From a virus (taxonomy: Duplodnaviria; Heunggongvirae; Uroviricota; Caudoviricetes): a DNA stretch of 41,961 nucleotides. Location: IMG/VR virus record IMGVR_UViG_2695420685_000011. The stretch is one strand, 5' to 3'. Below the pieces are notes generated by a model, which was not told where the DNA came from, did not search any database, and saw only the letters and a program-made list of their open reading frames with translations. Both the position numbers and the translations under genes were made by a program. The first letter of the stretch is position 1; each line of letters starts with the position of its first letter. Below, piece after piece: positions 27,581 through 41,108 of the stretch.

Positions 27581-27586
27581 TCAAAT

Positions 27587-27615
27587 GAAAAGCTCGTCAA
27601 TTGACGAGCTTTTCA
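27587..27615. terminator. bidirectional terminator between the plus-strand insert gene and dnaE
   Basis: Perfect 10-bp stem AGCTCGTCAA/TTGACGAGCT flanked by A and T runs. Confidence 0.65.
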
Positions 27616-27753
27616 TTAGGCGACTTTCTTACCAAAAATATTGGATAGCGTGACTCTGGTCTGGCGCTTCAGCCTGTACTGTCTCACATCGCCAATCTTG
27701 TTTACTTCCATAAACTCTTTGCTCTTTGGCCACCTTCATGGTGTTCGCTTTGT

Positions 27754-30700
27754 TCATTTGCTAATAGTCTCCGCTACCTCTGCAAGAATTGCTTCCAGCT
27801 TTTCGCCTTCCTCTGGGCGAAAGTACAAAATATTCGGGTTAAATCCGTAGAAAACAGTCACATCCAGCTCCGGCAGATACTCTTTGCGTCCAACCAGGTC
27901 GGATGGTTTGCTCTTGTTGTTGAAGAGCGATGTCGCCCGGCTGCCACACGTCAGCACATAGGTTGGACGCACCAGATTGATCTCTTCACGCATAAAGTCG
28001 GTGAACTGGCCGATCTCGTCTTTGGTGTAGTCTTTTTCTTTGTCTTTAACCTTCTTGCAAACGCCTGTGACATAGAGATCGCCCATGCGTAAATCTCCAG
28101 CCGTCAATAGCTTGGCCTTAAAATCGTCGTATCCGTTCTCCATAAAGTAACCGGTTCGAGCATCATTGCCGTTCGCATTGTCCAGAATGATCATGATTTT
28201 CGGCTTAATACCAATGCTGGGGCGGATTAGTTCATCACCTAAGCCCATTTCAGCCGCCATCCGTGTCATGAGCACGTTAATCTCAGCCGAACGTTTGGGG
28301 TTCATCTCAAACGGACGTGAGGCTTTAACTGCGTCTATGACAAGGTTTCCCATCAATTCAGCCTGGTCGCGTAGGCGCTCTGGATCAGTTGCTGGCAGAC
28401 TACCTGGCTCGATGGATGCAAACGCCCCTACTTTTTGCAGCGATTCGCGCACTCGACTATTACAGGCACGTTTCTCGACAGCTTCTTCGAATTGCGCCAG
28501 TGACTCGAATTTGCCGCCAACTTTTTCTCGCGCTCTCATGATGGCTTGGCAGCCATTCTCAGAACACCCCTTCACAGCAGAGAAGGGCGCATACAGCACC
28601 TGGCTGCCATCTTCAAGCGTGCGGATCTCGATTCGGTTGGATGACACGTTAACGTCTGGTGGCAATACGCGAATACCATAGGTCAGCGCATCTTTAACCA
28701 GCCCCTGGTGTTTATCTTCGCCAAGAATAGTGAGAGCAGCAGCGAAAAACTCTGCGGGATAATGAGTTTTCAACCACATAGATTGATAACTGATCAAGGA
28801 GTAAGCAACAGAGTGTGATTTGTTGAACTGGTAGGCACCATTTTTTTCGAATGCGGTCCAGATCTCCTTCGCTTTCATCTCTGATAGCCCTGGGTGTGAC
28901 GCTGTCACGCGTACTGCGTTTATAGGTAGTTTTGCGCCGTGTTCAAGCGCCTCTTCGACAGTTTTCAGTGTTCCGTCTTCGCATTTAAAATGTTCCGCAC
29001 GGTGAATGCGCTGTGTAGTGCCATCTTCCAGCTCAACGTCTATCCAGCCAGCTTGAGCCTGAACGATGAACTTCTCACCCATGCTCTTCATTTTCTCCAT
29101 GTCTTTTTTGCCGATCGCTTTACGAACGCCGTCAGCTTCAGCCATTGTGAAGCCCGCAAGCAATCGAGTCGCGTTCATCGTCTGTTCCTGATAAAGAATC
29201 ACGCCATTTGTTTCTGCGGTAAGTTCATCAAGAACGGGGTGTAATGATTCCGGCGTCATAAAGCCTTTGGCGACAGAAACATAATCATCCAACATGCCTG
29301 ACTGAATTGGCCCCGGCCGGAAGAGCGCAGTCGTAGCAACGACCGTTTTAAAGCTCATTGGCTCAATTCCACCACCTAAATCTTTAAGCAGCTTGCGCAT
29401 TGGGCCTGATTCAAGCTGGAAAACACCTTGAGTGTACCCAGCAGCAAAACCATCCAGCACCTTGCGATCTTCAAGAGAAATGGCATCAAGATTGATATCC
29501 TCACCTGTGTTCTCTTTAATGTAGCGTTTTGCACTATCGAGCAAATCGAGAGTCGCCAGGCCAAGTACGTCCAGCTTAATTAGGCCCATAGCCTCGCAGT
29601 AACGCTTGTCAAATGCGATACAACGCGCGTCACCACGTCGTTCAACCGGTGTTCGTTCTGTCAGAGGAACACCTGCTACGATCATCCCTGCCGCATGTCT
29701 ACCATAGCCACGCATAAGGCTTTGTAACTTGCAGGCTGCATTGAATGCATCAGGATATTTTGTCGCGTATTTGTCGAGGCTTACCAGTTGTTCGCGCAGC
29801 TCTTCCAATGGAAGGCTATCATCCTCGACGTTCTTCAGTTCTTTTGATACCGCCATATCTGCGGACTCCACACCATAAATACGAGCGGTGTCACGTAGTG
29901 CAGAGGCCGCGCCCAGGTAGGTGAAGTTCGGAATGCCTGCAACGTAATCTTCGCCGTAGCGTTCATTCAGATACTCGATCACCTCATGGCGACGTGCCTG
30001 GCTGAAGTCCAAGTCCGCATCTGGCAAGTCGAGACGCTCAGGGTTGATGAAACGTTCAAACAGAAGACCGTGACGGATAGGGTCGACGTTGGTTATGCCT
30101 ATGCACCATGCCACCAAAGAGCCAGCGGAGGAACCACGACCAGGCCCGACAGGAATGCCAGTTTCACGGCTGTGATTCATCAGATCGCGTACCATCAGGA
30201 AGTAACCACAAAATCCCAGGCGAGTAAGCGTGTCCATTTCGTACTTAAGTCGCTCAACATAAACCCTGTTCTCAGAAGCCGGTGGTGTGTAGCCAAACTC
30301 TTTTGTGGTAAGACGTTTACGCAGCCCAGCAACGGCCAGTTTCATCAGCGTTGCAGGCTCGTCGTCTGCCATCTTTGGCAGTGCTGGTGGCAATTCATGC
30401 CAGCGCCATGTGCAGGCATCGATAATGGTATCCTGCGTTGTTGAGGCCATTGCAGCTGTTACCGGCACATCCATGCGAACGGAGAAGGCTTTCAGCGCCT
30501 CAAGGAGATGGCGGCGACCATTGACGGCGTTATCTCGCTGGTGGGGGATACGCAGACGATGCGGCTGGTCGATTTTGATGTTGTTCGTAACCATGTGCGC
30601 AATGTCTTTAATGTCTGCATCGTCGATCGATTCGTAATAAGCGGGATAGAACGCTACTGGCTCTATTTTCAGTGCGCTGGCGACTTTCATCGCCCGGACG

Positions 30701-31272
30701 TTAATCTGGTCGTAGAATGGGGTAGGGTGCGGATAAACCACACTATAGAAGTTGTCTTTTCCACCCGCTGTAATCAGTGAGCTTATGATTTTTGCAAAAT
30801 CGTTGCGTTGGAACACGCTACCGATGTCGGCAGTGAGCAGGATGATGTTGCCTTTGGCATATGTAGAAACCAACTGTTCGAGCGAGAGACGCGGTACAAA
30901 GTAGAACTGTTCTCGTGTGTTGGCCGCCGTCATTAGTTCGCAGATGTCTCGATATCCCTGCTCATTTTTAATTAGAGCGGTAAAGGAGTAGTTCCGCCCA
31001 CGCTCTAATGATTCCATACATCCCATAGACTCTTTAGCAAGTTTAGCCCGGTGCTCGTATGTGGGATCATCAACAATGTTTAGTTTCACACCACAAATAA
31101 CCGCCATGTCGTCACCAGCGGCACGTTGTAGTGGAATAACACTCGCAATATTCATGCTATCTGCCGAAATTACAGCGGTGTAGCCAGCTTCTCTGGCAAT
31201 CTTCACCGCGTTTTCTGCTTTTAGAGCCGACTCCCCAAGAGAGAAGTCAGTTCGAACCATCAGAGCCTTCAT
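27754..31272 (-). CDS. dnaE: DNA polymerase III alpha subunit (DnaE-like, with N-terminal PHP domain)
   Basis: 1172 aa; PHP-domain N-terminus and collinear DnaE-like core; AAAGGTAAAAACAC leader. Confidence 0.92.
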   Translation of the reverse strand: MKALMVRTDFSLGESALKAENAVKIAREAGYTAVISADSMNIASVIPLQRAAGDDMAVICGVKLNIVDDPTYEHRAKLAKESMGCMESLERGRNYSFTALIKNEQGYRDICELMTAANTREQFYFVPRLSLEQLVSTYAKGNIILLTADIGSVFQRNDFAKIISSLITAGGKDNFYSVVYPHPTPFYDQINVRAMKVASALKIEPVAFYPAYYESIDDADIKDIAHMVTNNIKIDQPHRLRIPHQRDNAVNGRRHLLEALKAFSVRMDVPVTAAMASTTQDTIIDACTWRWHELPPALPKMADDEPATLMKLAVAGLRKRLTTKEFGYTPPASENRVYVERLKYEMDTLTRLGFCGYFLMVRDLMNHSRETGIPVGPGRGSSAGSLVAWCIGITNVDPIRHGLLFERFINPERLDLPDADLDFSQARRHEVIEYLNERYGEDYVAGIPNFTYLGAASALRDTARIYGVESADMAVSKELKNVEDDSLPLEELREQLVSLDKYATKYPDAFNAACKLQSLMRGYGRHAAGMIVAGVPLTERTPVERRGDARCIAFDKRYCEAMGLIKLDVLGLATLDLLDSAKRYIKENTGEDINLDAISLEDRKVLDGFAAGYTQGVFQLESGPMRKLLKDLGGGIEPMSFKTVVATTALFRPGPIQSGMLDDYVSVAKGFMTPESLHPVLDELTAETNGVILYQEQTMNATRLLAGFTMAEADGVRKAIGKKDMEKMKSMGEKFIVQAQAGWIDVELEDGTTQRIHRAEHFKCEDGTLKTVEEALEHGAKLPINAVRVTASHPGLSEMKAKEIWTAFEKNGAYQFNKSHSVAYSLISYQSMWLKTHYPAEFFAAALTILGEDKHQGLVKDALTYGIRVLPPDVNVSSNRIEIRTLEDGSQVLYAPFSAVKGCSENGCQAIMRAREKVGGKFESLAQFEEAVEKRACNSRVRESLQKVGAFASIEPGSLPATDPERLRDQAELMGNLVIDAVKASRPFEMNPKRSAEINVLMTRMAAEMGLGDELIRPSIGIKPKIMIILDNANGNDARTGYFMENGYDDFKAKLLTAGDLRMGDLYVTGVCKKVKDKEKDYTKDEIGQFTDFMREEINLVRPTYVLTCGSRATSLFNNKSKPSDLVGRKEYLPELDVTVFYGFNPNILYFRPEEGEKLEAILAEVAETISK

Positions 31273-32783: not shown

Positions 32784-34892
32784 TCACTTCAAAATGATAC
32801 GAGATAGTTCAGTAACTACAGATGAACCAAGACTATCAACGCTCGTTACTAGGGCATGGTTTGCGTAAAATCTCTCCGGTGCGTCAGTCATGATGCCAAT
32901 TGCCATCAAATCAATGTCAGTCTGCGTTTCAATTTGCTTCGCAACCGAACGCAAATGAGCGTCAAAACCTCTCCCAACAGCCCACGGCGCGCCATCGCTT
33001 AGAACAAGCATGATCTTCTTGTCCTCCATGCGACCAGAAAATAACGATGCAAGGCTGGCTATGCTTTCACCATCCACGTTATTAAGAAGTGGGAATGTGT
33101 AGCCTACGCACCCCATACGTGAGCGAACTTCGCGAGAATTTGCCTTTTCATTCCAATTTTTGATGATAGGTAGCATTAAAGATTCAAAGCGAGAGAACTC
33201 ATACTTGATTGCCTTAAGCTCTCCTGCTGCCATATGACTACCAAATGTTGTGAAGCCGGTGATAATGTTGGGAACATTTATTCGATCAAGCGCATCGGCG
33301 ATGGTATATGCACTTGCAAGAGCCAGTTTAATCGTTTCGCCGCTCATTGAACCTGATAAATCAATCACTTGTTGAACACAGGCGTTAACGGCCTTAGATT
33401 CTTCTTTTTTACGAAACACGCGATCATCATTCATTGCTAATCTGTAGATACTAGAACCATGAATGCGCCCCCGACGCTGGCCCGGTATAAACTGAACTCT
33501 GTTTCTGCTTGCAATTGCACGCTCCAGGTCTTTTGCCAGCGTCGACGAAACACCTGACGAAAGATGCTTTTCAATATATTTGTCGAAGAGTTGGTTGCCT
33601 TCAGGAACGATGCGATAACGGCTGATTGGATATCCACCTAAATCAATATCGGAGAATGTTTTAATAAGCCGTTTGATATGGGCTTCTGCCTGATCAATCG
33701 AACCGATGAAGTCGTATGAGCGATTGTATGGCCTGTATTCGCTTTTCGAGCTTTCTGTTAACTCGCTTTTAATCGTTTCGGATAGTGCATCTTCTGTCAT
33801 GCCTCCGACTTCATCTTCCATGCTATCAAGCTCCTCTAAAGCCTCTTCCAGACTCATTTTGGACGGAGTGGGAATGTCTGAAGAGCCGTCTTCTGCCGTT
33901 TTTCTTTTTTCGTGATCCGAGGTAGTTGCTTCTGTCGTCGCGCTATTGGAAGTATCAGAATCTAATACCTCTTTATCATTTTTTGTATCATCGAATATTG
34001 TTTCTGATGATTCAGAATTATCTGAATCATCACTATCGTTATCATCATGTATGTACTTACCGTGTGACCCATCATCTATAGATATGTGGTTATCTAGCAT
34101 CTCATGTGTCTTGTGATCTTCATTGTCTTCATTACTTTCTCCAGAGGAATCCGCTTGGTCAGCGTCTGAAGGATCGGGAGTTTTTCCCGGAGCTGACTCC
34201 TTACCTTTGCTTTCACTTTCTGTGTCTTTGAGGATCTTAGCTATGGTCGCAGCCACCTTTAAACAATCCTCGGTGCAAGACATGTTACGCACGGCCACAT
34301 CGATACCATGTTCTTTTAATAATGAAATTGGTTTCTCAATGACAGGCCAGTATTCATCCATGAAATCTACGAACGGTGCTTGGCCATCCCAGGCTCTTAC
34401 AACCGGACAGAGAAAGAAGTTTAGAAAAAGCGCGCGCTGATCTTTGCCACAATAAGTAATAGCCTCTGAAGCCTTTGGTTTAAAGACTTTTTCGATTATC
34501 AGGCGCTGAGTTGCCATCAGATTACGTCTTGTTCCGTTAAAGACCTGCCCCATTTTTCGCTCGATGAACACGTCTTCTAAGGCATTCCATAGTGACCAGG
34601 AAGGGACGTGTCCTTTTTCTCTCATTTTGTTGGACACATGAATATCGGTAAACAAAATGTGAGCAACTTCATGATCTAGAAATCCGCGTACTGCATTCAT
34701 CAATGCCGGTGTTGCGTTATCTGGGATTGATGGGATGTTTACGAGAATTGGCTCTCCATCATCGTTATAGCGTACATAAGCGTCGTCCCCTCGTTCTGCA
34801 ACAGGGATGTTTTTACCTGAAAGGAGAGCGACTACTCGTTTTACACTGTCACGGAAGTCCTGAACCTCTTTGATGGAACGTTTTTTGGACAT
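32784..34892 (-). CDS. cobT: vWA-domain protein, CobT-like, with long acidic linker
   Basis: C-terminal von Willebrand A domain with MIDAS motif DLSGSMSG; central D/E/S-rich low-complexity region. Confidence 0.8.
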   Translation of the reverse strand: MSKKRSIKEVQDFRDSVKRVVALLSGKNIPVAERGDDAYVRYNDDGEPILVNIPSIPDNATPALMNAVRGFLDHEVAHILFTDIHVSNKMREKGHVPSWSLWNALEDVFIERKMGQVFNGTRRNLMATQRLIIEKVFKPKASEAITYCGKDQRALFLNFFLCPVVRAWDGQAPFVDFMDEYWPVIEKPISLLKEHGIDVAVRNMSCTEDCLKVAATIAKILKDTESESKGKESAPGKTPDPSDADQADSSGESNEDNEDHKTHEMLDNHISIDDGSHGKYIHDDNDSDDSDNSESSETIFDDTKNDKEVLDSDTSNSATTEATTSDHEKRKTAEDGSSDIPTPSKMSLEEALEELDSMEDEVGGMTEDALSETIKSELTESSKSEYRPYNRSYDFIGSIDQAEAHIKRLIKTFSDIDLGGYPISRYRIVPEGNQLFDKYIEKHLSSGVSSTLAKDLERAIASRNRVQFIPGQRRGRIHGSSIYRLAMNDDRVFRKKEESKAVNACVQQVIDLSGSMSGETIKLALASAYTIADALDRINVPNIITGFTTFGSHMAAGELKAIKYEFSRFESLMLPIIKNWNEKANSREVRSRMGCVGYTFPLLNNVDGESIASLASLFSGRMEDKKIMLVLSDGAPWAVGRGFDAHLRSVAKQIETQTDIDLMAIGIMTDAPERFYANHALVTSVDSLGSSVVTELSRIILK

Positions 34893-35454: not shown

Positions 35455-35841
35455 ATGTCTGACAACAAGATTGAATTTATAGAAAGTCGCTACGCTGCTT
35501 TTATCGCAGGGTTGATTGAATCCTCACCTATGAGCCAGGCCCAGATAGCCAAAACAATTGGGTATAAAAACGCCAACAACCTTTCTTTAATTAAAAGCGG
35601 CAAAATTCCTTTGCCTATCGATAAGGTTCGTCCGCTGGCGCTGGCACTGGGTATTGAGCCAAGTCGTCTTATGATGATGGTGCTGGAAGAACGCCAACCC
35701 GAACTCGCAGCATTTTTATTCAAAGAAGGCACTGCTCCTCTTAACGAGGACGAAAAACAGGTTCTTGCTGCATATAACGAGCGATTCGGTAAAGAGAAAG
35801 GCGCATCACAAAAGGTTGTTGAGGCCATAAAGTCTCTATGA
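35455..35841 (+). CDS. XRE-family helix-turn-helix DNA-binding protein
   Basis: HTH SQAQIAKTIGYKNANNLSLIKSGK; AAAGG SD; 3' end overlaps the convergent recombinase gene. Confidence 0.7.
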   Translation: MSDNKIEFIESRYAAFIAGLIESSPMSQAQIAKTIGYKNANNLSLIKSGKIPLPIDKVRPLALALGIEPSRLMMMVLEERQPELAAFLFKEGTAPLNEDEKQVLAAYNERFGKEKGASQKVVEAIKSL

Positions 35842-36939
35842 AAAATTTACACGAATAAGCTCTGTCGATAGACGATCTCCCTTGAATTTGTGGTCAATTT
35901 CGTCTAAATCCGGTTGCTCTACGATTGATGCGATGTACGTCGAGAAACTTTCTAAGGCGTCTCGCATCTCGTCCATATAATCGTGCCGGTCGTAGACCCG
36001 ATCTATCCCCTCAAGACTGTGGTTCATGATTTTACGTGATACCTCCTGGCTTATGCCTAATGCTGGGAAGTAACTACGCGCAGTACGACGCAAATCTCGT
36101 GGTGTAAATGGCTCAAGCTCCATCAGTTCTGGTCGTTCCAGGATACGGCGTAATGCCTGGGCTATTGCCACTTTAGACATCGGAAGATCTTTCCCGATTT
36201 TTTTATTCGAAGGCACAAGCCACTGGCTGCCTTTACCATATTCGAATAACTCTTCAATGCATGTGCGCATTAATGTGCTTAAAGGCAGAGAATGCTCACG
36301 GGCTGATTTGTTTCTCTTGCCTTGATTCCAAACCCCACGCTGGAGGTTGAACTCACTTTTTTTAGCCCGCAGTACTTCGTCAGGTCGTCTTGCGGATACA
36401 AGACATAGCCTGGCCGCCCATTTTGTACCAGCACACACATTGAAGTAGTCCCATATATTCCAGAACACCCATACCTCTGCGTCGGTTAGCTTCCGCTCGC
36501 GAGGTGTGGGCTTTGCGCCACCGGCAACTTTGTTAAGTGACATATCGTTTAACGGTGACACGTCGATCATCCCCTGGAAGGCGCACCAGCTGAGGAACTG
36601 CTTCATCAGAGAGAAAACGCGGCGACCCATAACAATTTTGCCATCCAGTATTAGTGGGTTGACCAGTTGGTTCACCATGAACCTATTAATATCACTTACT
36701 TTTACATCGGCAATGTGCGGCAAAACATGTATCAAAATACAATGAACAGCGATCTCTGGCCGACGTCTTGTTATCAGCAGAGATAAGCGAGTGAATAACA
36801 TGAATGCGTCCGAGAATCTCATGTCATTGCTGACCTGGGAGATCATAACGGCCTGCATTTGAGATGCTCTTTCGAGATACTCAATCGCCTCTTTTGAGGT
36901 GTTCTCCGCAGCGCGTGCTCTGTCAAAGCTATTTTTCAT
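35836..36939 (-). CDS. int: tyrosine-type site-specific recombinase (phage integrase family)
   Basis: C-terminal catalytic region DLRRTARS..NHSLEGIDRVYDRHDY (R...H..R...H...Y pattern). Confidence 0.85.
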   Translation of the reverse strand: MKNSFDRARAAENTSKEAIEYLERASQMQAVMISQVSNDMRFSDAFMLFTRLSLLITRRRPEIAVHCILIHVLPHIADVKVSDINRFMVNQLVNPLILDGKIVMGRRVFSLMKQFLSWCAFQGMIDVSPLNDMSLNKVAGGAKPTPRERKLTDAEVWVFWNIWDYFNVCAGTKWAARLCLVSARRPDEVLRAKKSEFNLQRGVWNQGKRNKSAREHSLPLSTLMRTCIEELFEYGKGSQWLVPSNKKIGKDLPMSKVAIAQALRRILERPELMELEPFTPRDLRRTARSYFPALGISQEVSRKIMNHSLEGIDRVYDRHDYMDEMRDALESFSTYIASIVEQPDLDEIDHKFKGDRLSTELIRVNFS

Positions 36940-37034
36940 ATGACAATCACCGAGTTACGCCGATGCACTGTATAAGTAAACAGTATATTAGGCATAGATT
37001 CTTATAGGATCAAGAGTAAAAGTAACTCATTTTC

Positions 37035-37067
37035 AGTAATGATTCCATACATAGTAGGTATGGAATC
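37035..37067. other. lox-like palindromic site (13-bp inverted arms, 7-bp spacer)
   Basis: AATGATTCCATAC-ATAGTAG-GTATGGAATCATT, perfect inverted arms, 96 bp upstream of the recombinase start. Confidence 0.5.
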
Positions 37068-37149
37068 ATTTAGACGTTGTTTTTTGAATTTTAAGGGAAA
37101 CAGGAGTGAGTTTGGTGGGAATAAAAACGGCTCCTGTGAGCCGTTTAAA

Positions 37150-37395
37150 TCAGAGGGTGCTGACGTATGCAGCCAGTTCTGTGTATCCGCCAATCGGTTG
37201 GCCATCGATCAGTACCTGGGGGATAGTCTCTACCGGTTTACCAACAATTTCACTAAGTTTTTCCTTGTCGATACCGGCAGTGGTGATGTCGATGTACTCA
37301 TAATCACCGTAGCCATGTCCCTTTAGTTGCTTCGCCAGCTCGACCGCACGTTTGCAGTATGAGCAGTTATCTCGTCCGTAGATAGTGATCGTCAT
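37150..37395 (-). CDS. glutaredoxin (NrdC/NrdH-like redoxin)
   Basis: MTITIYGRDNCSYCK active-site CxxC and glutaredoxin-like C-terminus; start set to the ATG at 37395 with GAGGT SD. Confidence 0.8.
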   Translation of the reverse strand: MTITIYGRDNCSYCKRAVELAKQLKGHGYGDYEYIDITTAGIDKEKLSEIVGKPVETIPQVLIDGQPIGGYTELAAYVSTL

Positions 37396-37569
37396 TGTTA
37401 CCTCATAGAATTGATATGCAACTTTACTTACAAAGAAGATAGGTATGTGCATACTTATCATTGCAGTCTGCATTATAAAGCTATTAAAGCCTCGATCAAT
37501 CTATTAATTAAGGCATTGTTTGGTTAACATTACCCTAATATTTTATAGTTAGTAGAGTGAAATACATAC

Positions 37570-38832
37570 ATGCCTTTTTTAATTTTCATTATTATACTAC
37601 TGCTCACCGTGATTTTTTGGGATTGGGTTGTTTTAAATGGTCAAATTGTTGGAACATTGGCTACAGCATTTGCTTTTATAGCAACAGCATGGAATGCCTA
37701 CGAAGCGAGAAAAAGTGCAAAAGCAGCTTTTTCAGCCCTTCAATTAACAACAGAATCATTGTTCGAAATGCGAAAGAGTGCATTTAAACAATGGTTTGAT
37801 TCCTTATTAAATCAACATGATGAGCTATGTCTTCTTGCAAAACAAATTATCGATAAACGCAAAGTTAATTTAAACAGCGATGAGTTACATAGACTATATT
37901 ACCCATTGGTAAAACAGCATGAGGTAATACAGTATGTGAAGCATATTATTAATATTTTTGAGTATGTGGATAGTTCATTTTATATTGATGGGGAATGTCT
38001 AAAGGAAAAAAGAGCGTATGTGTCACAATTAATTTTCAAAATCCCACCTCAGATGAAGTTGATCATTGCTATCTTTGGATTAAAAATCGATTATTGTGAA
38101 CATATTAATTCGGGAAAACTGTGTTGTTTATTGAATAAATATGATTTTTTCAATGATGAAATATTTTTTGATGATGCTTATTCAGATATGCCTTATCTGG
38201 ATGCATTCATAAACCTTAGATTCAACAAAATATTCAAATCTCGAATGATAAATTATTTTGATAATATCATTAAAAGTTATTATGTTCCATCGGACGTTAA
38301 AAGGGACTGGATGTTTCGAAACCCAAAGCTCGTGCCGTCGGTTCTTATGAATTATAAAACTCCTTGTTCTCCTATAATTAATGATTACTTTGAGAAGTTG
38401 CCTTTACATGTAAGAAACTACTTTGAGGAACTACTTAAAACCGCGAATGATAGAGTTACTCATTTTGACGTTTACATCCCACGCCTTATTGGTTGTTCAA
38501 TCGTGCAACATTACGAAGATGTGCCTTCCGAAAAAAACAGGTTAAATGACAGGAATGATGTAATAGCTATGGCTGAAGATTACATCGAGAAAAGAAAATA
38601 TAATCAACTGGATTACATACTTGAAGATATATACTTCAAGAGTGACGAAGATATAATCCCTGGCCACCATTTGATTGTGGCATTTGATGACTATGAATTT
38701 AAATTATCACTCATTAAGATAAATGAGAATAAAGATAGCGATAATCTTTTAAATCGAATTTATACTGAATCCAGTAGCATGGTTAAAGAATATAAGCGCG
38801 AAATATTAAAACTGGGCGACTATGTAAAGTAA
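37570..38832 (+). CDS. membrane-anchored hypothetical protein
   Basis: 420 aa; two N-terminal hydrophobic helices; very AT-rich and N/K/Y/F/I-rich; plus strand; terminator directly downstream. Confidence 0.6.
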   Translation: MPFLIFIIILLLTVIFWDWVVLNGQIVGTLATAFAFIATAWNAYEARKSAKAAFSALQLTTESLFEMRKSAFKQWFDSLLNQHDELCLLAKQIIDKRKVNLNSDELHRLYYPLVKQHEVIQYVKHIINIFEYVDSSFYIDGECLKEKRAYVSQLIFKIPPQMKLIIAIFGLKIDYCEHINSGKLCCLLNKYDFFNDEIFFDDAYSDMPYLDAFINLRFNKIFKSRMINYFDNIIKSYYVPSDVKRDWMFRNPKLVPSVLMNYKTPCSPIINDYFEKLPLHVRNYFEELLKTANDRVTHFDVYIPRLIGCSIVQHYEDVPSEKNRLNDRNDVIAMAEDYIEKRKYNQLDYILEDIYFKSDEDIIPGHHLIVAFDDYEFKLSLIKINENKDSDNLLNRIYTESSSMVKEYKREILKLGDYVK

Positions 38833-38844
38833 ATTGCACTGTTC

Positions 38845-38878
38845 AACAAAAAAGGGGCCGAAGCCCCTTTGAATTTTG
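38845..38878 (+). terminator. rho-independent terminator after the 420-aa gene
   Basis: Stem GGGGCC/GGCCCC region (AAAGGGGCCGAAGCCCCTTT) followed by a T-run. Confidence 0.7.
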
Positions 38879-38944
38879 CGCTGAAAAAAGTGTTGCTAGG
38901 ATGTTAGCAAGCTATGGTTAAGAACGTCTGCCGTAATTATCTAT

Positions 38945-39022
38945 CACAGCGTTGAGCGGTCTGGTTTATGTTAGCGGAGTCTTAATCGAGTTGATTAAAA
39001 GGCCAAACCGCTCAACGCTGTG
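38945..39022 (-). other. long hairpin (16-bp perfect stem) at the 3' end of the tRNA cluster
   Basis: CACAGCGTTGAGCGGT at 38945-38960 pairs with ACCGCTCAACGCTGTG at 39007-39022; possible processing or termination structure. Confidence 0.5.
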
Positions 39023-39024
39023 TC

Positions 39025-39111
39025 TGGCGGAGAGTAATGGAATCGAACCATCATCGTTTGCACAATGGGACGGTTTTCAAGACCGCTTGAGCACCATGCT
39101 CCCTACTCTCC
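39025..39111 (-). tRNA. tRNA-Ser (anticodon UGA), long variable arm
   Basis: Manual fold: acceptor GGAGAGT/ACTCTCC, anticodon loop CTTGAAA, T-loop GGTTCGATTCC, CCA end. Confidence 0.8.
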
Positions 39112-39431
39112 AGCTATTGTGATGGTCGGTGCTGAACTCCGACACAGGGTTGTAGCAAGCCCCGCAAAGCGCGCACTACTGTAGTTGCGGCACATCAGCC
39201 TGTGCATTCATCACAATGGTAAGATCACTACCTTTCGACCAGTCATTGTGCACATGAACGACGATTAACCGTAATGATATTATCGTTGTGTTGTGAAGCC
39301 AGATGCTTATCTTCTGGTTGCTTCAAAGAGCTGCACTTCCTCACAACGGTAAGAGCACTGGTCTGACTCTATCGATTTACGGCCTTGTGGGTCAGTATCG
39401 CCGATTCGCCCAATGCTCTTACCTGTTGTGT

Positions 39432-39507
39432 TGGTGCCGGTTAACGGACTTGAACCGCTGGCCATTCGCTTACAAAACGACTGCTCTACCAACTGAGCTA
39501 AACCGGC
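39432..39507 (-). tRNA. tRNA-Thr (anticodon UGU, tentative)
   Basis: Manual fold: acceptor GCCGGTT/AACCGGC, D-arm GCTCAGTTGGTAGAGC, anticodon loop TTTGTAA, T-loop TTCAAGT, CCA end; one mismatch in the anticodon stem. Confidence 0.65.
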
Positions 39508-39511
39508 AATT

Positions 39512-39598
39512 TGGTGGGGAGTGATGGAGTCGAACCACCCGAGTCGCCATGACAGTAGATTTACAGTCTACACCGCTACCTCTACGGACTAACTCCCC
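39512..39598 (-). tRNA. tRNA-Tyr (anticodon GUA), long variable arm
   Basis: Manual fold: acceptor GGGGAGT/ACTCCCC, anticodon stem-loop GTAGA-CTGTAAA-TCTAC, T-loop GGTTCGACTCC, CCA end. Confidence 0.8.
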
Positions 39599-39603
39599 TA
39601 AAT

Positions 39604-39678
39604 TGGCGATGGTGGGTGGATTCGAACCACCGACCAGTTGGTTAACAGCCAACTGCTCTACCGCTGAGCTACACCATC
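39604..39678 (-). tRNA. tRNA-Asn (anticodon GUU)
   Basis: Manual fold: acceptor GATGGTG/CACCATC, anticodon stem-loop GTTGG-CTGTTAA-CCAAC, T-loop GGTTCGAATCC, CCA end. Confidence 0.85.
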
Positions 39679-40456
39679 AATTCAGCACTGCCAGTATTTA
39701 TTACTCAACAGTGCCAATCGCGACGGTTTAGTTTCTGCCAGGAAACGCACCGCTACTTGCACTTTTCGTTAGTGCCAGACGCTTTCGACTTCGCTCAATA
39801 GTAGAAGGCAAAATCTTTAAGTAGATGATGTTTCTGAGGACAGCACCTACTTTGTAATTTATACAATGTGATGTATGGAATCATTTGTTGTGAAAACAGG
39901 CACCAATGGCAACAGTGGTTAAACCTACACAACAATCCCGTCTTCACAACGTTGAGGCCACTACTCCGATTGAATGTTTGCCCAACATGTTACATATCAA
40001 CGCTCGCCGGTATCTCTGTGAATAGAACCTTAGAATTGATAAAAATGTAATGGCCTCAACGTTGTGTGCTGGCTAACCATACCAGCCGGGCTACGTCGCC
40101 GCTTTTTAACCCAGTATAAACGACATAATTGAACAAAATGACGTAACAGGATGGGCGGTCAGTGGCTAAGAATCCGGGAGTCATATGGAGTTGAAAATAT
40201 ACCAACCGCCCATTCTGTTACTTCATCGGAGGGAACATGAATGTTCCCTCCTGCGTTCTGCAATCACACTCGCTCAGTGTGTCCCATTTCGGTAACGAGG
40301 CTGGAAACTGACCTCGCTGGTGTTTGGCTTATTAGGCTACTGCCAGATAGACTTCTTCGTTTGCACTTGTATTTAAGTTCAAACAGTCGCGTCTCAACGA
40401 AAACAAAGTCATCTTATACACAAAAGATAAGTAAGTAAATACTTATCATTGTATTT

Positions 40457-40747
40457 TTATTCGGTTGTGACTTTTTTGATCAAGGCCACTCTACGACTAG
40501 GTGTTCTTGTGATGGTGGCAGTGAATCGTTTCGCCTGGATAGTAATGGTTTCGTTCTCCTTAAGTTGCCCGTAGCGAGTTTCCACCAGGGTGCCAAGACG
40601 CCACAGACCATCATCGATACGTTTATGACTAGCAAATTTAATCAGCAACAGTTTTACGACTAACTGACCTACGTAAAAGGCGAATGCGACTCCGGCCGCT
40701 AAGAAATAGGTGGCCAACCACCATTCCCAAGAAGTTAGCTTGCTCAT
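40457..40747 (-). CDS. membrane-anchored hypothetical protein
   Basis: N-terminal TM helix WWLATYFLAAGVAFAFYVG; AAAGGTGAAAAA leader; start overlaps the upstream small ORF stop. Confidence 0.6.
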   Translation of the reverse strand: MSKLTSWEWWLATYFLAAGVAFAFYVGQLVVKLLLIKFASHKRIDDGLWRLGTLVETRYGQLKENETITIQAKRFTATITRTPSRRVALIKKVTTE

Positions 40748-40896
40748 TTTTTCACCTTTGTTTCATGAACTACCCGATACACGCGCTTTCCTATGCACAG
40801 TGTTTTGGTTTTAAGTTCCTGCTTAATCAAATCACGACAGATGCCGAAGCCGATAAGGAAGCCACCCATAAAAGCTAATGAGATGTATGGAATCAT
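40744..40896 (-). CDS. small membrane protein (50 aa; not in ORF track)
   Basis: My own translation: MIPYISLAFMGGFLIGFGICRDL...; AGGAG SD 8 nt upstream; start overlaps the upstream stop (TAATG) and stop overlaps the downstream start (ATGA). Confidence 0.4.
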   Translation of the reverse strand: MIPYISLAFMGGFLIGFGICRDLIKQELKTKTLCIGKRVYRVVHETKVKK

Positions 40897-41108
40897 TATA
40901 ACACTCCTGATTCTACTAATTGCTGTAGCAATACTTTCCCTTTATCAGTTAACTGGTAGTTGGCCGAACACTTCGTTTCAGAAACGTTTGCAACCAACCC
41001 TAACCGCTCTAACTTAGCCCGCGTTTTAGGCTTCCAGTACTCAGGGAACTCTGACCACTTACTGATTTCATGAAGTGTTTCCTTCTCCCGTTTACTTAAT
41101 ACGATCAT
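40896..41108 (-). CDS. hypothetical protein
   Basis: ORF with GAAGGAGAT SD; 70 aa. Confidence 0.55.
   Translation of the reverse strand: MIVLSKREKETLHEISKWSEFPEYWKPKTRAKLERLGLVANVSETKCSANYQLTDKGKVLLQQLVESGVL

Follow-up and report, generated by a model that had tools for sequence, protein, structure and literature searches.

In a genome fragment of a Caudoviricetes virus, the gene of the tyrosine recombinase Int is preceded by a perfect inverted repeat. This raises the question of whether the repeat is the site on which Int acts and, if so, what such a pair would be needed for. The DNA analyzed here, referred to as the window, is a stretch of 41,961 nucleotides (IMG/VR record IMGVR_UViG_2695420685_000011). 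Its region 35800–38900 is 98–99% identical to ~110-kb E. coli plasmids and to Escherichia phage Cyrano. These relatives are phage-plasmids of the SSU5/pHCM2/pMT1 type (PMC9928086), and the window is a phage-plasmid of this type as well. A literature search for the integrase of SSU5, pHCM2, or pMT1 found no functional study. The features of the locus and the local gene order are compiled in Table 1.

Table 1. Features of the locus, in order along the window
Feature	Position	Strand	Remarks
dnaE	27754–31272	-	
Half-site A, GATGTATGGAATCAT	31008–31022	-	In dnaE, codons ~84–89, encoding G-C-M-E-S-L
cobS-like and cobT genes, then 70-aa gene			Between dnaE and HTH gene
HTH gene, 128 aa	35455–35841	+	
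Tyrosine recombinase gene int, 367 aa	35836–36939	-	From the ORF list
LexA (SOS) box, CACTGTATAAGTAAACAGTA	36966–36985		Between candidate -10 and int start codon; abuts the -10
Putative int promoter	36985–37014	-	-35 TTGATC 37014–37009, 17-nt spacer, -10 TAATAT 36990–36985; identified by eye
Core site (palindrome)	37038–37070		Arm AATGATTCCATAC 37038–37050, spacer ATAGTAG 37051–37057, arm GTATGGAATCATT 37058–37070
Outward flank with T-run, TAGACGTTGTTTTTTGAATTTTAA	37071–37094	+	Loosely conserved
Terminator hairpin	37125–37147		GC-rich; between palindrome and grxA
grxA (glutaredoxin)		-	Right of the terminator hairpin
420-aa ORF	37570–38832	+	No Pfam match
Four tRNA genes	39025–39678	-	tRNA-Asn among them
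Small genes and DNA ligase gene		-	Right of the tRNA genes
Half-site C, GATGTATGGAATCAT	39870–39884	+	Non-coding, right of tRNA-Asn
50-aa ORF	40744–40896	-	ATG overlapped by the 21-mer 40877–40897
Half-site D, GATGTATGGAATCAT	40882–40896	+	Overlaps 70-aa gene stop/50-aa gene start (TAATG)

An Rfam search of the whole window yields tRNAs only. The GC/AT skew of a complete relative is dominated by gene strand and does not help to decide whether replication starts or ends at the palindrome. Another perfect palindrome, of 34 bp and without spacer (27584–27617; AATGAAAAGCTCGTCAA directly followed by TTGACGAGCTTTTCATT), separates dnaE, at its 3′ end, from an ORF that converges on it, and is probably a bidirectional terminator. 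In addition, a LAGLIDADG homing-endonuclease/intein domain is found in the cobS-like AAA gene of a Xenorhabdus relative (L113, 14481–16802) and in an E. coli relative (NZ_CP117002.1, 4413–6752), where the position of the gene corresponds to the 357-aa ORF region of the window. Both domains lie within conserved genes.

The 33-bp palindrome and its partner gene

The site consists of two perfect 13-bp arms around a 7-bp spacer and lies 98 nt from the int ATG. A preliminary description of the window had recognized this architecture and the location upstream of the recombinase gene; its coordinates (37035–37067) have to be shifted by 3 nt rightward, and the distance of 96 bp has to be replaced by the measured 98 bp. 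The exact 13-mer GTATGGAATCATT is present in five copies in the window (31007-, 37038-, 37058+, 39873+, and 40885+) and in none of 100 dinucleotide-preserving shuffles of it. A complete 108-kb relative also carries exactly five copies, all inside 10 kb, and neither this relative nor the window contains copies with one or two mismatches. The palindrome alone is only moderately unusual since one in 30 Markov simulations of the window also produces a perfect arm of at least 13; its significance comes from recurrence and conservation. The recurrence of the arm as 21-mers had been noticed before, correctly at 40877–40897—where the copy indeed overlaps the start codon of a small minus-strand gene, the 50-aa ORF—and off by one at 39866–39886 (actual position 39865–39885). 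These had been given as two more copies, flanking the tRNA region. Two revisions are needed: a fifth 13-mer copy at 31007–31019 in dnaE, in opposite orientation, had been overlooked, and the tRNA genes are not flanked by the 21-mers because both of these stand to their right. It is the palindrome and the copy at 39873 that bracket the glutaredoxin/ORF420/tRNA cargo region.

With arms in the range of 11–14 bp, a spacer in the range of 6–8 bp, fixed length, and free sequence, the palindrome has the architecture of the simple lox/FRT/dif-type core sites. XerCD/dif-like sites such as cer and psi feature different 11-bp arms for XerC and XerD around a 6–8-bp spacer and are served by the host Xer proteins. 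Compared with the dif/cer consensus, the palindrome does not belong to this group: Its arms are identical and change with the int clade of the plasmid itself. To our knowledge, sites of Fur, DnaA, Tus/Ter, IHF, and XerD account neither for the GTATGG core, which is invariant, nor for the way the arms co-vary with int. An intrinsic terminator was considered and rejected—the stem is AT-rich, the T-run begins 9 nt past the stem, and a terminator scan finds none at the palindrome, the real grx terminator being the GC-rich hairpin further right. Another palindrome, of 12-4-12 geometry and located in cobT (34005–34032), also contains the ATGATTC of the arm, but it codes for an acidic repeat, and a relationship is improbable. 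Full-text literature searches for either arm sequence returned no relevant paper.

Across relatives, the palindrome goes hand in hand with int. When IMG/VR was searched for two arms separated by 7 nt, 101 loci emerged, with the palindrome 45–101 bp upstream of int wherever int is visible. Upon widening the gap to 0–20 nt, the same 101 matches were obtained; hence, the spacer length is fixed at 7. In a pooled set integrating IMG/VR, metagenomes (searched with a degenerate pattern that matches either arm type), GTDB genomes, and protein-led look-ups, 222 palindromes adjoin an int homologue, 41–156 bp upstream of it. These comprise 161 sites of the TT type, 59 of the CG type, and two with a single-arm difference. 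TT-type arms (TGATTCCATAC) occur only with int of 55–100% identity (n = 161) and CG-type arms (TGACTCCAGAC) only with int of 41–53% identity (n = 59). Among the 14 loci without int, 13 are cut at the locus edge and one is a non-palindromic chance match; a palindrome far from any recombinase, as would argue against such a partnership, was sought in relatives and not found.

The same layout is featured by Klebsiella, Kluyvera, Buttiauxella, and the Yersinia pestis plasmid pMT1. Homologues of int at 44–52% identity were traced to their contigs, which are Xenorhabdus and Providencia phage-plasmids, a 106-kb Erwinia plasmid without phage genes, a 507-kb Pantoea replicon, a 722-kb Rahnella replicon, and Photorhabdus Rep3 plasmids of 34 and 47 kb. 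Every one of these loci carries a 12–13-bp/7-bp/12–13-bp palindrome 18–110 bp upstream of int. The arms read (A/G)TGACTCCAGAC and differ from the window arm by two substitutions, which are mirrored in both arms. A homologue of the HTH gene stands beside int in phage-plasmids and in the Photorhabdus plasmids and is absent from the Erwinia, Pantoea, and Rahnella modules. Since the linkage persists without the HTH gene and off phages, the constant partner of the palindrome is int rather than the HTH gene or the phage replication genes.

The spacer varies in sequence while the arms are unchanged: 16 variants occur in TT-type and 5 in CG-type sites (for example, CTACTAT, CTATTAA, TTGGTAG, TTGTAAG, and TTATATA). 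Reverse complements such as CTATTAA/TTAATAG are found in both orientations relative to int inside one clade. Such drift and flipping is what one expects of a site whose only partners are identical copies of itself, and not of an attP that has to match a fixed attB. The earlier proposal of a lox/dif-type core site for the adjacent recombinase is borne out, at the level of comparative sequence analysis, by the constant linkage, the co-variation of arms and int clade, and the invariant 7-bp spacer. The palindrome is almost certainly the lox-like target of Int itself.

Int, its control region, and the proposed role

Int matches the Pfam families Phage_integrase and Phage_int_M (PF00589 and PF22022) and features the marks of the tyrosine recombinase superfamily, namely the R-K-H/R-R-H/W-Y set of catalytic residues in a C-terminal domain and a core-binding domain ahead of it. 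Residues R185, K211, R284, H307, and Y316 are invariant or nearly so (alignment A1, 26 sequences), and position 281 is Arg in the Int family and His in the outgroups. The retention of the catalytic set over 41–100% identity indicates that catalysis is under selection. The N-terminal Arm-DNA-binding domain (PF13356) is absent from Int and present in the nearest outgroups (P0114–P0120). An AlphaFold2 model of Int has a pLDDT of 84; as judged by Foldseek, its best PDB folds are lambda Int bound to its core site, followed by Tn1549 Int, XerA/XerH, and IntI, with 1z1b, 6en2, 5jk0, and 2a3v among the matches. Cre entries rank 36th and lower (E ≥ 0.014), at an E-value of about 4e-7 for lambda Int, and a PDB sequence search with Int finds no chain at E ≤ 0.01. 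Int looks like a lambda/P4-type integrase that lost its arm-binding domain. By sequence and by fold it stands outside the Cre family (close homologues such as Cre, Dre, VCre, and Vika), although the site on which it would work is lox-like.

The candidate int promoter scores 8/12, under the threshold of the promoter scan. In the clade with at least 80% int identity, 92 of 97 loci feature a CTGT-N8-ACAG motif with variable interior at a distance of 53–55 nt from the palindrome; the LexA box is mostly missing in the ~60% clade, and none is apparent by eye upstream of int in the 44–52% clade. Because the box is conserved at the candidate promoter, int is probably SOS-inducible. The palindrome lies ~23 bp upstream of the weak candidate -35 in the clade of the window and 18–46 bp from the int start codon in other clades, where it abuts or overlaps the promoter region. 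Since the site is just upstream of the int promoter, bound Int probably represses its own gene. On the far side of int, the HTH gene converges on it with 3′ ends overlapping by 6 nt (35836–35841), and a transcript of the HTH gene would run antisense through int. The HTH/int pair is conserved, at 38–65% identity, in phage-plasmids of several genera and in the small Photorhabdus Rep3 plasmids.

The position of the palindrome also fits an alternative in which it serves purely as a transcriptional operator, bound by Int or by the 128-aa HTH protein, and is not a place of recombination. Lysogens of the relative Cyrano express the HTH gene (Table 1 of PMC9928086), and the dispersed half-sites described below resemble regulator sites. 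We consider this alternative unlikely. Full conservation of the catalytic set argues against it, and the HTH protein was rejected as the binder of the palindrome: No copy of the motif is present at the HTH promoter, and the gene is absent from several modules in which the palindrome persists. In addition, the centers of the two half-sites of the palindrome are 20 bp apart, a spacing typical of recombinase cores rather than of small HTH dimers.

The occurrence of the module bears on the question of integration. Of 5,426 complete E. coli genomes, 248 contain the region, at 294 places that are all on plasmids; chromosomal copies number 0 among these 5,426 genomes. A tblastn search of PLSDB places int on 934 plasmids, usually in single copy, which include 74 Pantoea, 63 Yersinia, and 12 Rahnella plasmids. 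For the int homologue P0007, for which an 897-kb contig was sought as an integration test, the contigs returned were of ~106 kb and 12 kb. The palindrome is intact beside int in every locus and never split. The absence of chromosomal copies from these E. coli genomes and the presence of the module on non-phage plasmids agree with the earlier suggestion that the recombinase acts in the plasmid state rather than in integration.

It is very improbable, then, that the palindrome is the core of an attP and Int a true integrase into the host chromosome, for example, at a tRNA gene, even though Int is annotated as an integrase, has the lambda and Tn1549 integrases as best folds, is encoded near tRNA genes, and is under SOS control like many excision functions. 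All 294 places in the complete E. coli genomes are off the chromosome, no locus shows a palindrome separated from int or broken up, and the spacer differs from lineage to lineage and flips, although an attP would need it to match attB. The arm-binding N-domain is missing, and the motif is unlike the tRNA genes of the element. Lambda/P4-type phage integrases use a 7-bp overlap region and provide the closest fold and profile matches to Int. They differ from the present system by an N-terminal arm-binding domain (PF13356 in the nearest outgroups) and by arm-type sites, neither of which is found here, and the palindrome in turn is a perfect dyad with no chromosomal integration seen in the E. coli genomes; judged also by the integrated copies between attL and attR that mark the class, the pair falls outside the lambda-type integrases with attP.

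We therefore favor, with a probability of about two in three, a reading in which the palindrome and Int form a plasmid multimer-resolution pair of the Cre/loxP or ResD/rfsF kind, probably autoregulatory and with a LexA-controlled promoter. It builds on linkage, co-variation, the geometry of the site, the catalytic residues, and the plasmid-only occurrence, from which we infer binding, strand exchange, resolution, and autoregulation. One Int monomer would occupy each 13-bp arm. In a dimer of the phage-plasmid, two identical sites in direct repeat would synapse, and Int would exchange strands over the 7-bp AT-rich overlap so that monomers are restored—as by Cre/loxP of P1 and ResD/rfsF of F. Int may also help to circularize incoming phage DNA, and the LexA box would tie its production to the SOS response. 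Several points stand against resolution: No natural recombination product, such as a resolved dimer or a hybrid site, was observed; the modeled fold of Int is nearer to the lambda and Tn1549 integrases than to Cre; SOS control is not obviously expected of a housekeeping resolvase; resolution by itself leaves the conserved half-sites without an explanation; and the cargo, which varies from the edge of the site onward, could be a sign of some other activity.

Cre/loxP serves dimer resolution and cyclization in the phage-plasmid P1 (PMC7969092). Like this system, the locus features a single tyrosine recombinase gene by a simple site with two 13-bp inverted arms and a short asymmetric spacer. Cre/loxP needs no accessory arm sites. 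Differences are the spacer of 7 bp compared with 8 bp in loxP, the lack of detectable sequence similarity between Cre and Int together with a weak fold match (E about 0.01–0.1), the LexA box at int, and the conserved isolated half-sites elsewhere in the genome. ResD of the F plasmid is a plasmid tyrosine recombinase that acts at rfsF beside its own gene, reportedly both as resolvase and as repressor of its own transcription; the likeness to Int, drawn from this general description of ResD/rfsF, lies in the recombinase gene beside its site.

A further class to be weighed comprises conjugative relaxases that resemble tyrosine recombinases (MobK/MpsA/TcpM type), in which case the palindrome would be part of an oriT. 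These are short catalytic-domain proteins that nick a complex oriT, with mobilization by a helper type IV secretion system. Elements of Klebsiella and Salmonella encode such relaxases directly downstream of the oriT, and MobK features its catalytic tyrosine at residue 179 and an oriT of 186 bp with imperfect repeats (PMC8152469). Single-strand nicking could also give isolated half-sites a role. Compared by description, Int differs in size and domain structure, with 367 aa and a core-binding domain, and its site is a perfect 13-7-13 dyad. In addition, 900 of the 934 PLSDB carriers are typed non-mobilizable, though this typing would miss tyrosine-recombinase-like relaxases. A relaxase would suit the two-domain protein and the perfect dyad poorly, and this reading has a low probability.

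Variable cargo and isolated half-sites

Many relatives diverge from the window at 37070–37094, as judged by the ends of alignments (query positions 371–395) and by the comparison with Cyrano. The stretch from the palindrome to half-site C (37071–39865) is a plasticity zone of 1.2–6.7 kb in relatives, with separate variable slots just past the palindrome, after grx, and among the tRNA genes; the 420-aa ORF of the window is swapped for other genes. The gene inserted beside the palindrome in Cyrano, CYRAN_43, reportedly has an expression level in lysogens that exceeds background 723-fold (PMC9928086). Immediately beside half-site C, at ~39887–39960 in minus-strand reading, a long-range inverted repeat is found (GTTGTGAAGACGGG, ~45 nt, CCTGTTTTCACAAC). 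It is present in Klebsiella, Buttiauxella, and others with pairing-preserving changes, the covariation being weak with five sequences. The region 39680–40456 has no annotated gene and no Rfam match, and the inverted-repeat stretch may be a structured RNA or an origin-like element.

A LexA-controlled int that faces a hypervariable region, from which relatives diverge exactly at the edge of the site, recalls integrons; SOS-induced Int would insert foreign DNA beside the palindrome and thereby generate the variable cargo. The LexA box at the int promoter is a feature in common with integron integrases and attI. Int does not belong to these as judged by the absence of an IntI model match (NCBIfam, Pfam), a mid-ranking IntI fold that is weaker than the match to lambda Int, and the lack of repeats bounding the cargo. 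Such capture is quite unlikely since the cargo segments are not delimited by repeats of attC-like or half-site type, the spacer of the palindrome is not matched by those of the half-sites, and the cargo differs at several other junctions as well (after grx and around the tRNA genes).

The three isolated copies of the arm have a longer 15-bp core in common, GATGTATGGAATCAT. Counting a near-copy in int, this core occupies the same four relative positions throughout the TT-type clade: Half-site A is located ~6.0–6.3 kb left of the palindrome, half-site C 1.2–6.7 kb right of it at a position conserved across genera, and half-site D ~1.0 kb beyond C. Outside E. coli, most genera carry the near-copy GATGTATGGAATCAAG at the codons for D-V-W-N-Q-G, among them Klebsiella, Kluyvera, and Yersinia with related clades. 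It corresponds to 36321–36336 (-) of the window, ~716 nt left of the palindrome and in left-arm orientation, and is decayed to GGGGTTTGGAATCAAG in the E. coli clade. Conservation of the residues W-N-Q-G may account for part of the match. In total, 76 half-sites occur in 481 kb around TT-type palindromes compared with none in 535 kb around CG-type palindromes.

Half-site A is invariant in all clades with TT-type arms and encodes G/R-C-M-E-S-L, with neighboring codons and residues varying between genera. In Providencia and Xenorhabdus, which both lack the site, this loop of DnaE has the sequence ETQLPV or EELLPI. Since the flanking residues vary and the loop differs where the site is absent, half-site A is conserved as DNA. 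The conservation of half-site C is not protein-coding either because the overlapping ORF in Kluyvera would be merely MIPYIQ*. A degenerate second arm beside the half-sites was sought at spacers of 5–9 bp and not found, the mean of 2.2–4.0 of 13 matches being at chance level. The adjoining 7 nt (A-T-N-N-G-A-T) differ between the sites and from the spacer of the palindrome, and because of this mismatch productive recombination between a half-site and the palindrome is unlikely. The half-sites are elements under selection at the DNA level, occur in one clade only, and are unlikely to be recombination partners.

The left half-sites have the orientation of the left arm and the right ones that of the right arm, so that each of them faces away from the palindrome. 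For four inherited sites, such polarity has a chance probability of ~1 in 8 and is no more than suggestive. A conserved 12-bp arm with a partly conserved 7-bp segment resembles the sfx sites of Rci of plasmid R64, which feature one conserved arm, a partly conserved 7 bp, and no conserved second arm. Unlike in that system, no inversions or deletions between sites are seen in >200 loci, the 7-bp segments differ between the sites of one genome, and one site lies in an essential-looking gene.

The type phage SSU5 of Salmonella (L244, JQ965645, 9906–10160) is without int, HTH gene, grx, and palindrome, its tRNA-Asn being directly followed by cobT. It keeps half-sites A and D exactly and half-site C with one mismatch, as observed in a single genome in which the deletion is possibly recent. 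With 12–13 nt identical to the arms, Int is the obvious candidate for binding the half-sites, and most likely these are binding sites of Int monomers with an additional role. A more specific proposal, which we put forward as speculation at rather low odds, is a second, non-recombinational layer of Int action restricted to the SSU5-type clade: SOS-induced monomers would bind the 15-bp sites in the replication module and serve as polar roadblocks to, or regulators of, transcription or replication forks in the surroundings of the resolution site, or as an architectural scaffold.

Implications for phage-plasmids

The pair of recombinase and site is previously undescribed but conventional in kind. 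Phage-plasmids of the SSU5/pHCM2/pMT1 type are common in clinical Escherichia, Klebsiella, Salmonella, and Yersinia, and their maintenance is poorly understood; a defined 33-bp target gives the "integrase" of such a phage-plasmid a testable maintenance function. The pairing with this target also explains why an integrase-like gene is kept by elements that are never found integrated. The two natural specificities, with TGATTCCATAC and TGACTCCAGAC arms, could be used as orthogonal genome-engineering tools alongside Cre/lox. The conserved half-sites of the one clade are the more interesting part. The half-site in dnaE, kept as DNA while the protein loop varies, clearly illustrates how a coding sequence can conceal a regulatory or architectural element—and if the proposed second layer of Int action is true, it would couple DNA damage to the control of the element's own replication genes.
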